Made by a program: the position numbers. This document shows positions 1 through 3,000 of a stretch of DNA of 64,000 nt, one piece after another. The stretch's first letter is position 1, and each line of letters opens with the position of its first letter. This DNA comes from a plasmid: NCBI RefSeq assembly GCF_054482595.1, contig NZ_JBTHVH010000004.1, one strand, 5' to 3'.

Positions 1-3000
1 ATGATTAAAAACAACGAGTTAATCCATCCTTTTGACGTAACCAGTAATGAATCAGGTAAGACTTATCAACTGACGCCTAACTCGTCCAAGTCGGTTCAGC
101 CCGTGGCCCTGTTGAGATTGAGTGTATTTACCCCTGTCGGCACAAAAGAAAACCGCGACCGAAACTTTGAAGTTGATGCCTCTGATGAGCTTTCGTGTAT
201 GGAAATTGCAAGATCGGAGGGTTATGACGACATCAAGATAACTGGTGTCAAACTATCTATGTCTACCGACTTTAAGTGCTGGCTCGGGATCATCATGGCT
301 TTCAGTAAATATGGTTTTACTTCCGAGAAGATTACCCTGACTTTTAACGAGTTTGCGAAGATGTGTGGTATCAGTTCAACAAACATCAACAAACGAACTC
401 GTGCGCGCTTTAAAGAGTCATTAATGAACCTTGCATCGGTAGTGCTTGCCTTCTCAGACTCTCGGAGTGGTCGGTTCACAGTAACGCATCTGGTGCAGAA
501 GGCTATGATTGATCCAAAAAGCGATACTGTTGAGTTGGTTGGGGATCCTTCTATGTGGGAACTGTATCGTTACGACCATAAGACATTGTTAAGCCTTCAG
601 GTTCTATACATTTTGGCTAAAAAAGAAGCTGCGCAATCTCTCTATATTTATTTTGAAGCAATGCCAGCTGGTACGTTGTTCGTTAATATGAAACGGTTGA
701 GGGAAAGGTTGCTTCTTACAACCCCTATTCGTACGCAAAACCAGATAATTCGTAAAGCAATGCGGGAACTTGAATCTATCGGATATCTCGATTATCAAGA
801 AGTTAAGAAAGGTCGCGACATACAATTTCAGATCTTCAAAAGAAGCCCTAAGCTGGCCCTCGCCAAACAAGGTTGAAAGCTACCAGGTATGCACTGGTTA
901 TAACATGCTGAAAAATAAGTTATTTATCAGTGCTATGCTTAGTGCTTCTTTTACTACTGGTCTTACATCTCGGCTTAATGTGCAAAAAAGTAACTTTTCA
1001 AACGAACTCCTGACTATTCATCTGTATGCCTTTCTGGCTCAAGCGTACATGCTAGCCCATTCATTAAATGCCGTGGAGCAAGATGGTTTCGTGCGCACTC
1101 TATTCACGTGAATGCCTTTTGTGGATTACGCCTCTTACATTCATACAAATGCTTTTGATGTCGGTATCCCAAAAAATCATTCATTGAAATGCTTTTGTTT
1201 GCCACTGTATCCCGAGCATAGCTATGCAGTGGTATAAAAAGGCATTTTGGTGAATGGCATTAGGTCGAATGACACACAGTACAGCTTTGTTAAGAGCGAG
1301 AATGGTCCAAGACATCTATGACATTGGGCATCAGAAGGACTATGTGTTTGATATGAGATCAAAAAAATATCAGAAGCATCACAACTCCAATGGCATTCAA
1401 AGAAATGCCTTTGTTTTGTTAGTACACCAAACAACCCAAAATTCATGCAGTTATATCAAAGACTCATTCGCAAAAGGACTCAGCCAGAAAGCATTTGCTT
1501 AAATAGCATTGGCCAAAAGCATTCGAATGAATGATGTTCATATGGACAAGACAAAGTCCCACTCACGCCCAGAGGTGTAAAAGGCATTTAGATGAATGAC
1601 GCACCGGCCGAGGATTGTATGTAGTTTCTCCAACTGATAGTTGCCGAACCAGGGAGCACAGTGATATGCGGCCTTCTCAGAATCAAGAGATAGATATTAA
1701 GGGAACAAAAAAGATTAGATATGAAGCTTAGTTACCTGCCCGATATCTAGTTAGAGCTTTTCAAACCATCAAAAGTGACTTTTATGCTTGAGGAGTCTCA
1801 TCAGCTTCAGGATTGAGCTTAACGTAATCTTACCCCCTCCCCTCTTTCAAACTTTTACTAAGCGTTCACTGGTACTTTTCAAAGATTATGCTTTAGGCCC
1901 CTTTGCTTAAAAATTCACCAATCGCTAAACGTTAAAAAAAGGGGGTTTATGCGAACGGAAGGATCGGAATAAAAAAGTATTATTCATTCGCGTTTACGTG
2001 AACTCAAATCTACACGGAGTAATTATGGAACTTTCTTTAAATATTGGCCTTAGTGAAAAGAAATCTAACACGGCTGCACTTTTTAAAACAAAAAGCGCAA
2101 AAGTGATTTTGTTTGTTCTGCTGACCGTGCTTTTTTGCGGTCTGGCATATGCGGGTTCAGATGATGGGGCACTGGGAGATATTTGGTCATACATGAGTGA
2201 AAGTATGACTGGAGCTCCGGGCAAAATTCTGGCAGCCGCGATGTTGATCTCAAGCGTATATTTCTCTGTCCTTAAGCCTAACCCGGGCCTGGCACTGGTT
2301 TCATTATTCATGATGCTGGTAATGGCCAACGGCGAGAAAATTATCAGCACCTTTATGGATGCTGGCGTACCGCTGTAATTTATTGTTAATCATGCATGAG
2401 GGGGTTCATCCCCCTCTCTGGATTTTTAATGAGTAAGCAGAACGACGTTCCTCAGCATACCTATAGATTCCCTTTCAGGATCAACATGCCTCTACTGATT
2501 TTGTTTTGGGATGCAAAAAAAATAGGGCTTGCATTCATTCTGGTTGCATTTGGGAATATCTTCGAATGCTTCGGGTTTTCTGTTGTAGTAGCGGTTGTAT
2601 ATTGGATTGCGTATAACAAAGCAGCTGAGTCAGGAATAAGAGGATTGCTAAAACACAGACTCTGGTGGCTCGGTTTTTTGCCAGGTAAAGCAGTTTTTAG
2701 TAGCCGTTATTTCAACGATCCATTTATCAGAGATTTGTATTCTTGATGGAGCTATGAATGAAAATGCTAAGTGGCATTAACATCCCTTTTTTCAAAAAAT
2801 CTAAAAAGGATGAAAACGGTGATCTTGAACAGTCATACGTAAAGAAAGATGAAAGTGCTAAGGGACGTTTTTTGGACATTAAAAAACGATTTAGCCCACA
2901 AGCTGAAGCGTCAGGTGCTGGAATTACATACAGCGCCCTGATTAATCGTGATACAAAACTTATCCGCATTAATACTGTTTCAATAGCCGTCATTGGGTTA

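Follow-up and report, generated by a model that had tools for sequence, protein, structure and literature searches.

The RepHI1A and R478 replicons were reportedly characterised by Newnham and Taylor in 1994, by Page and colleagues in 2001 and by Gilmour and colleagues in 2004, and the first two of these studies are said to describe autonomous replication of a cloned RepHIA-type segment together with IncH incompatibility. The gene repHIA (= repHI2A) is named in the literature as a core IncHI2 replication gene. Similar arrangements of initiator gene and iterons occur in other plasmids. In the P1 replicon, repA stands between oriR, which combines DnaA boxes with five GATC heptamers and five incC iterons, and a set of nine incA iterons. 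In the RepFIA replicon of F (ori2/incB - repE - incC), the F sequence places four ori2 iterons before repE, and after the gene come iterons in inverted orientation, at least five in number. Experiments on RepFIB link its upstream iterons, BCDD', to the origin, and assign control and incompatibility to the downstream set, E-K (PMC11983097). A FIB plasmid was displaced by the downstream block alone and not by the upstream block alone, and the authors proposed handcuffing (PMC11983097).

The DNA analysed here (the window, 64,000 nucleotides) comes from an R478-type IncHI2 multidrug-resistance plasmid whose record opens at repHIA, and covers its first 64 kb. For positions 1-2000, 1105 plasmid records typed IncHI2A reached an identity of 99% or more, and MOB-suite assigned the matching plasmids to IncHI2A, MOBH and MPF_F. 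Positions 1-1600 are the replication module RepHIA, already known from IncHI2 resistance plasmids. Very probably they form the right-hand two-thirds of the R478-type RepHIA replicon, comprising rep and a downstream Rep-binding control array, with the origin just upstream. The sequence analysis shows the families to which the gene and the iterons belong, the map, the origin upstream of rep in identical plasmids, and the conservation of this plan in R27 and in FIB replicons.

The rep gene of the RepHIA replicon (aliases repHIA, repHI2A and RepHI1A(R478)) was assigned from ORF, Pfam, identity and fold evidence to positions 1-876 on the plus strand, where an ORF scan of the window found an ATG-initiated frame encoding a predicted iteron-binding initiator of 291 aa. 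Membership in the Rep_3 initiator family (RepE, pi and pPS10 RepA) was examined with Pfam PF01051 and PF21205. The N-terminal WH1 domain was recognised by Rep3_N at residues 98-215 (E 6.3e-7; 30.3 bits, with the cut-off at 22.4), and the C-terminal WH2 domain by Rep3_C at residues 231-275, with a score that is marginal yet above the cut-off (21.9 bits against 21.1). No NCBIfam family matched Rep. The protein is 100% identical to WP_000594612.1, a 'RepB family plasmid replication initiator' of IncHI2 plasmids, and the gene is 100% identical in more than 1,000 IncHI2 plasmids. Compared as DNA with the gene that opens R478, it shows approximately 99% identity; its product shares 86% identity with the R27 RepHI1A Rep, likewise of 291 aa.

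A search of the Rep sequence against PDB chains gave no match at E up to 1, and structural relatives were found through fold search only. The AlphaFold model (pLDDT 80.4, pTM 0.72) matched in Foldseek domains 2-3 of RctB (E 8e-9, TM 0.53-0.57), RepE 2z9o (E 2e-5), the WH1 domain of MSBI1.176 (E 9.5e-4) and, weakly, TrfA, so that the predicted structure shows the two-winged-helix fold of solved initiators. Cognate iterons adjoin the gene on both sides, five upstream in identical plasmids and 11 downstream in the window. The ORF at 1-876 is, as judged by profile scores and a predicted fold, a Rep_3-type initiator, as an earlier note made from the sequence alone had claimed, and Rep would be expected to bind these iterons.

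The same note had placed the start of the ORF exactly at position 1. This is the real start codon, because in an identical plasmid an in-frame stop lies 10 codons upstream of rep with no alternative start between. The coincidence with the edge of the window reflects where circular records are opened; R478 and many other records also start at the rep ATG, and for this reason the origin, at the far end of the circular record, falls outside the window. The apparently odd layout of iterons after the gene is thus the product of record linearisation and a known control array.

The sequence upstream of rep was supplied by pEGY1-MCR-1, a plasmid that matches the window over positions 1-2000 with 100% identity. 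There, the origin iterons that had been suspected upstream, beyond the window, were found in the 250 bp before rep, at -151 to -50 from the ATG, as four strong copies and one degenerate copy in a single orientation throughout and with 21-22-bp phasing. They are preceded by four AGATCA(A/C) Dam-site heptamers, with GATC at -246, -233, -223 and -202, and also by DnaA-box-like sequences. The order of the module is hence DnaA-box-like sequences, heptamers and phased iterons, the last iteron ending approximately 50 bp before the ATG. The heptamer/iteron block is conserved between IncHI2 and R27, whereas its flanks have diverged. Better DnaA boxes, TTATCCACG and TTTTCCACA, lie beside this block in R27 only. 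Upstream of rep in IncHI2, a search for the DnaA box TTATCCACA at up to one mismatch returned zero matches, the best candidate being TTTTCAACA, and the DnaA boxes of the IncHI2 version are of poor quality. A Dam methylase gene of the plasmid is located approximately 3.6-4.3 kb upstream of rep in both pEGY1-MCR-1 and R27.

Downstream of rep, the cluster of short repeats described earlier as about 500 bp long was confirmed at 1013-1600 (588 bp). It contains nine clear and two weak copies of a 19-20-bp iteron, AAAGGCATTTnnnTGAATG, in both orientations and with irregular spacing (37-216 bp). Scores below are given for a position weight matrix (PWM) and then for an independent, non-circular PWM built from only the four strong upstream iterons of the identical plasmid, all of which lie outside the window. 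The first five copies are on the minus strand: iteron 1 at 1013-1034 (GAAAGGCATACAGATGAATAGT; 23.0 and 14.5 bits), iteron 2 at 1056-1077 (CACGGCATTTAATGAATGGG), iteron 3 at 1099-1120 (AAAAGGCATTCACGTGAATAGA; 24.0 and 15.4 bits), iteron 4 at 1136-1157 (CAAAAGCATTTGTATGAATGTA; 24.8 and 16.0 bits) and iteron 5 at 1176-1197 (CAAAAGCATTTCAATGAATGAT; 26.1 and 16.9 bits). The central spacer of iteron 2 is 1 nt shorter, a deletion owing to which the ungapped PWM overlooks this copy; it was recovered by regular-expression scan and in-register alignment.

Iteron 6, at 1237-1258 on the plus strand (AAAAGGCATTTTGGTGAATGGC; 25.8 and 16.0 bits), is oriented as the origin iterons are and is overlapped by a weak, degenerate plus-strand copy at 1252-1273 (GAATGGCATTAGGTCGAATGAC; 15.8 and 14.4 bits). 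Iteron 7, at 1392-1413 on the minus strand (CAAAGGCATTTCTTTGAATGCC), is nearly palindromic, scoring 25.2 bits on the minus strand and 16.7 bits on the plus strand at 1388; its palindrome (1392-1409), a hairpin followed by a T-run, was the sole terminator-like match in a scan of the upstream origin and the downstream cluster. The remaining copies are on the plus strand, namely a weak one at 1486-1507 (AGAAAGCATTTGCTTAAATAGC; 16.9 and 14.5 bits), iteron 8 at 1514-1535 (CAAAAGCATTCGAATGAATGAT; 26.0 and 16.5 bits) and iteron 9 at 1579-1600 (AAAAGGCATTTAGATGAATGAC; 28.2 and 19.7 bits), which is closest to the consensus.

With the upstream-only PWM, 13 matches of at least 9 bits were obtained within 900-1650; in 2000 mononucleotide shuffles of that segment the mean was 0.29 and the maximum 3. 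Over the whole 64-kb window, the ten best matches of this PWM all fell inside 1013-1600. On these grounds the cluster is a genuine, non-random feature that shares its sequence family with the origin iterons. The consensus shared with the phased upstream iterons supports the view that the repeats at 1013-1600 are putative iterons of the adjoining Rep. An Rfam search of 1-2500 at a permissive E-value found nothing, and an antisense or ctRNA-type control element is therefore unsupported.

The R478 RepHIA replicon is the same locus. Its bases 1-2400 are 99.25% identical to window positions 1-2400, and the two sequences agree in the place of rep (1-876), in the iteron cluster and in the start of the first Tra2 gene at 2025. 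The 18 differences (16 substitutions and two single-base indels) remove no iteron, and as a test of constraint on the iterons 18 differences in 2.4 kb have no statistical power. The window carries the common modern IncHI2 allele, WP_000594612.1, and R478 the allele WP_000594611.1.

In R27, the RepHI1A replicon shares the iteron consensus of IncHI2, AAAAGCATTTGnATGAATG. Its upstream set consists of five phased iterons between about -157 and -50, the block of AGATCA heptamers has been retained, and rep adjoins the first Tra2 gene as it does in the window. When the IncHI2-derived PWM was applied to R27, five upstream and approximately 18 downstream sites were found at 14-28 bits. The downstream arrays differ in form: that of R27 is longer and more regular, with three inverted and then approximately 15 direct copies at a 43-44-bp period over approximately 1.1 kb, whereas the IncHI2 array has 11 copies over 0.6 kb, the first five inverted and the rest of mixed orientation. 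Rep is close to both R27 RepHI1A (86% at the amino acid level) and R478 RepHIA (99.25% DNA identity over bases 1-2400).

RepFIB replicons (P307, F and pO157, and Klebsiella FIB(K)) encode a homologous Rep with 42-46% identity over 97% of its length, and these relatives are annotated RepFIB or RepA. Like RepHIA, they have 4-5 upstream iterons in a 21-bp phase and downstream iterons of mixed orientation. The iterons themselves are unrelated, being ATAAACTGTAGTnAGT in E. coli FIB, ATTGACTGCGATATG in FIB(K) and AAAGGCATTTnnnTGAATG in RepHIA; neither FIB ATAAACTGTAGT... nor the FIB(K) repeat resembles the HIA iteron, and a different specificity and incompatibility would therefore be expected. The neighbouring genes also differ, with a recombinase gene after the FIB downstream iterons and tra genes absent. 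RepHIA is therefore a sister replicon with FIB architecture and not a FIB replicon.

The resemblance to F that the earlier note had drawn holds for the layout, with origin iterons upstream of the initiator gene and control iterons downstream of it, inverted in F after repE. RepE and the RepHIA Rep are both Pfam Rep_3 proteins, and the fold search matched RepE, but pairwise similarity between Rep and F RepE was not significant by BLASTP (E 0.13), which gives no orthology. The F iteron, TGTGACAAATTGCCCT, differs from that of RepHIA, so the incC iteron sequence is not shared, and the F incC iterons are all in one orientation whereas the RepHIA downstream iterons are mixed. The resemblance is an analogy within the Rep_3 superfamily and not membership. 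By sequence criteria, the closest true relatives are R27 RepHI1A, which has the same iteron, and RepFIB, not F RepE. RepA of P1 is placed in another Pfam family, and the P1 layout has the same module order as RepHIA and R27, running from DnaA boxes through heptamers, phased iterons and rep to a downstream array with both orientations.

The mechanism proposed here draws on the homologous RepFIB and on the analogous elements incC of F and incA of P1. Monomers of Rep would occupy the phased iterons of the origin and, acting together with DnaA, open the GATC/A+T-rich segment next to them, and the same binding at the origin iterons would probably repress the rep promoter. Because a simple sigma-70 scan of the upstream origin and the downstream cluster gave no rep promoter in the iteron region, we can only infer autoregulation. 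With their irregular spacing and mixed orientation, the downstream iterons would act as a negative-control and incompatibility element and not as an origin, titrating Rep and handcuffing the origin iterons via Rep, in cis or on sister plasmids. Titration and handcuffing, which we likewise infer from the analogous systems, would keep a plasmid of 200-300 kb at low copy number. Limiting copy number is most likely the function of the downstream iterons, as homology and architecture suggest.

Since the downstream control iterons of FIB, and not its origin iterons, displace effectively (PMC11983097), the downstream iteron block is a natural candidate for curing cassettes directed at IncHI2 plasmids, whose cargo includes mcr-1, mcr-9 and ESBL genes. 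The practical value of the present assignment is modest and its scientific value small.

That the cluster at 1013-1600 is itself a replication origin, main or second, is very unlikely. It has more candidate Rep sites than the upstream set, and a one-mismatch DnaA box, TAATCCACA, lies among its iterons on the minus strand at 1120-1128; however, the count of DnaA boxes (TTATCCACA, up to one mismatch) is only at chance level. The irregular spacing and mixed orientation of the cluster contrast with the co-oriented upstream set phased at 21-22 bp, and the cluster is without an adjacent GATC-heptamer or A+T-rich opening module, whereas the upstream module is conserved with R27. In FIB, the homologous replicon, inhibition resides in the downstream block, and it is the upstream block that is associated with the origin (PMC11983097). 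Sequenced plasmids also carry IS insertions inside the cluster. IS10 splits the downstream array, and in pEGY49_MCR-1.1 a 291-bp insertion at 1592-1597 breaks iteron 9. These natural insertions fit a non-essential control region. As evidence of dispensability they are weak, because the plasmids have RepHI2 as a second replicon and frequently further ones; pSI115-1 has an IS1 that disrupts even rep.

A role for the control array beyond copy control, in which the mixed-orientation iterons would couple the replication state to expression of the Tra2 pilus genes through Rep looping or would cross-handcuff co-resident IncHI1 and IncHI2 plasmids, may be imagined, as may a plasmid Dam methylase that frees firing of the GATC-heptamer origin from the host; all this is very unlikely. 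Regulation of the Tra2 operon through Rep looping or occupancy as the chief function of the downstream iterons, coupling replication and transfer, is highly improbable. The cluster does have rep on one side and the first Tra2 gene on the other, a synteny that IncHI1 and IncHI2 plasmids have in common. The first Tra2 gene, annotated as a hypothetical protein in identical plasmids, R478 and R27, occupies 2025-2378 on the plus strand, at what we take to be the trhA (pilin gene) position. Genes for TraL, TraE/TraK, the TraK secretin, htdO and trhB follow downstream, which places rep beside the start of the Tra2 region on an IncHI backbone. Against a chief role in transfer, the FIB homologues keep their downstream iterons without tra neighbours, having the recombinase gene instead. 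Furthermore, the spacer between the control cluster and this gene (1601-2024, approximately 425 bp) is free of PWM matches and is an IS insertion hotspot, where other IncHI2 plasmids have elements of the IS3 family inserted at 1658-1663 and 1672-1675, and such insertions are tolerated in plasmids typed conjugative.

A reading of the repeats as chance or low-complexity sequence, or as a by-product of coding ORFs, has a negligible probability, for although small ORFs (770-1111 and 1254-1502) overlap the region and the R27 array has an annotated 'hypothetical protein' inside it, chance is refuted by the 13 PWM matches against 0.29 expected, and the motif recurs upstream of rep and in R27, there in other number and arrangement. 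As genes, the ORFs at 770-1111 and 1254-1502 were rejected; they are unannotated in IncHI2 RefSeq records and run through the iterons.

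The rep gene occupies window positions 1-876 (+), with an ATG start and 291 codons. The predicted protein scored above the Pfam gathering cut-offs for both Rep3_N (30.3 against 22.4 bits, E 6.3e-7) and Rep3_C (21.9 against 21.1 bits), bearing out the Rep_3-like assignment of the earlier note, and showed an overlapping sub-threshold match to the related TrfA profile. An AlphaFold2 model built from 29 homologues (pLDDT 80.4, pTM 0.72) matched solved structures of RctB domains 2-3 (E 8e-9), RepE on its operator (2z9o, E 2e-5) and a Rep WH1 domain (6h24). On the basis of these profile and model matches, Rep is predicted to be a two-winged-helix, iteron-type initiator. 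The top structural match, RctB, is the Vibrio cholerae chromosome-2 initiator and ranked ahead of the plasmid initiator RepE.

The locus is the already known RepHIA replicon of IncHI2 plasmids and nothing novel. In all, 1105 plasmid records, from hosts that include Escherichia, Salmonella, Enterobacter and Klebsiella, matched window 1-2000 at 99% identity or more; those examined typed as IncHI2A, and most were predicted to be conjugative. The reference IncHI2 plasmid R478 (NC_005211) matches the window at 99.25% identity over bases 1-2400 and has an effectively identical replicon; its base 1 is the first base of this rep gene, at which many further records also open. The position of the ORF exactly at position 1 thus reflects a circular record opened at the rep ATG, which places the sequence upstream of rep at the record's other end. 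Tra2 transfer genes (including TraL, TraE/TraK, the TraK secretin, htdO and trhB) lie 3' of rep, as in the IncHI1 plasmid R27. R478 RepHIA and R27 RepHI1A were reportedly characterised by Newnham & Taylor 1994, Page et al. 2001 and Gilmour et al. 2004. In the literature, the gene is named repHIA or repHI2A and regarded as a core IncHI2 replication determinant (PMC5034289; PMC6312765; PMC6339943), and the other IncHI2 replicon, RepHI2, is a separate locus with twelve iterons of 80-81 bp (PMC8490738).

Downstream of rep, a repeat search and a regular-expression scan identified a ~20-bp motif recurring in both orientations over window 1013-1600, with the consensus AAAGGCATTTnnnTGAATG and an internal dyad GCATT-N6-AATGC. 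Listed by the start of a 22-nt window and strand relative to rep, the iterons lie at 1013-, 1056- (with a central spacer 1 nt shorter), 1099-, 1136-, 1176-, 1237+, 1252+ (weak), 1392- (nearly palindromic), 1486+ (weak), 1514+ and 1579+, with irregular spacing (37-216 bp) and mixed orientation. Because of the internal dyad, several sites register on either strand (1172+/1176-, 1388+/1392-, 1514+/1518-), leaving the 5' A-run and the asymmetric centre as the sole markers of orientation. The iteron at 1392-1409 folds as a hairpin and is followed by a T-run. In order to avoid circularity, the position-weight matrix used to evaluate these sites was built only from the four strong iterons that precede rep in an identical plasmid, outside the window. 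This matrix gave 13 matches of at least 9 bits in window 900-1650, against 0.29 on average and never more than 3 in 2000 mononucleotide shuffles of the same segment, and its ten best matches in the whole 64-kb window all fell within 1013-1600. The downstream repeats described in the earlier note are therefore real; a chance or coding origin is refuted by this excess and by the same consensus in R27.

The region upstream of rep was examined in pEGY1-MCR-1 (NZ_CP023143), which has 0 mismatches over window 1-2000; positions are relative to the rep ATG. The annotated start stands, since an in-frame stop lies 10 codons 5' of it and the interval holds no other start codon. The 476-bp intergenic region contains four strong iterons, whose GCAT cores lie at -130, -109, -88 and -65, and a degenerate fifth at ~-151, in one shared orientation and phased at 21-22 bp, as anticipated from the suggestion that the origin iterons lay upstream, outside the window. 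Four GATC sites at -246, -233, -223 and -202, each inside an AGATCA(A/C) heptamer, precede them, and an A+T-rich stretch lies further upstream. Alignment of IncHI2, R478 and R27 showed the heptamer block and iterons conserved within diverged surroundings. Two good DnaA boxes, TTATCCACG and TTTTCCACA, lie directly 5' of the heptamers in R27, whereas the IncHI2 counterparts, TTATCATTG and TTTTCAACA, are weaker. Judged from its sequence, the region has the classical layout of an iteron-plasmid origin, and is probably closest to P1 oriR. A Dam-family adenine methyltransferase gene lies outside the window, ~3.6-4.3 kb upstream of rep (1667-2440 of the pEGY1-MCR-1 locus examined), and R27 likewise carries one (44007-44831 of the R27 locus) a few kb from its RepHIA origin; the plasmid may supply its own methylation of an origin with four conserved AGATCA heptamers.

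Comparison with other replicons placed R27 RepHI1A as a close sister. Its Rep is 86% identical and likewise 291 aa, and it shares the iteron consensus, with five phased copies upstream; in the downstream array, three copies in inverted orientation come first, and then ~15 in direct orientation recur every 43-44 bp. The E. coli RepFIB and Klebsiella FIB(K) replicons differ in iteron sequence and their Rep proteins are 42-46% identical, but both keep the plan of iterons phased at 21 bp ahead of rep and iterons of mixed orientation behind it. In the replicon of a ~62% identical Rep homologue, which also has different iterons, only a single clear repeat copy stands ahead of rep, and several, in both orientations, follow it. 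The F-like arrangement suggested earlier holds in layout: in the F sequence, which was checked directly, repE is preceded by four iterons and followed by at least five inverted ones. However, pairwise comparison of F RepE with the window Rep gave no significant similarity (E 0.13), and RepHI1A and RepFIB, not RepE, are the nearest true relatives.

The upstream iterons are phased and co-oriented, whereas the downstream set is irregular and mixed. We infer that Rep binds both sets. The upstream iterons would nucleate origin opening and probably repress rep, and the downstream iterons would serve as a negative-control and incompatibility element, acting through titration of Rep and Rep-mediated pairing (handcuffing) with the origin iterons. 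The strongest support for this mechanism comes from experiments on the homologous FIB replicon, in which upstream iterons BCDD' go with the origin and downstream iterons E-K with control, and a FIB plasmid was displaced by the downstream block alone and not by the upstream block alone; intra- and inter-molecular handcuffing was proposed, in line with the cited model for incC, the control iterons of F (PMC11983097). These experiments also disfavour the downstream cluster as the origin, which is very improbable given its geometry and the lack of an opening module there, origin-type accessory sequences being found upstream of rep only. Regulation of the adjacent Tra2 operon by the downstream iterons is purely speculative, and no tra genes adjoin the downstream iterons of the FIB homologues. 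An Rfam search of window 1-2500 gave no indication of an RNA-based control element.

Other IncHI2 plasmids show this replicon to be a hotspot for insertions. In window coordinates, IS1 lies inside rep at 674-682 (pSI115-1), IS10/ISVsa5 splits the downstream iterons at 1273-1282 (pCFSA300-1), an element of 291 bp whose ends resemble IS21 lies inside the last iteron at 1592-1597 (pEGY49_MCR-1.1), and IS3-family insertions lie just beyond the cluster at 1658-1663 and 1672-1675 in other IncHI2 plasmids. The insertions within and beyond the iteron cluster are consistent with a non-essential downstream control region but are weak evidence for one, because the plasmids carry other replicons and in pSI115-1 rep itself is disrupted. 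Plasmids with other replicons can evidently lose RepHIA.

Elsewhere in the window, a tandem array at 12515-15093 comprises ~10.5 copies of a ~249-bp unit (71% matches) and is a candidate repeat region for partition or centromere association. It sits in a ~4.3-kb stretch without annotated genes, between a TraC-family gene (ending at 11636) and parA in IncHI2 plasmids, and R27 has an equivalent unannotated gap (25338-28465). The copy number or register of the array differs from that in pM160133_p1. Relative to this plasmid, otherwise 98-99.9% identical, the window has ~1.33 kb extra at ~22462-23790 and a further, IS1-sized ~0.77 kb at ~29571-30335, both probably IS insertions inside the Tra2/par region.
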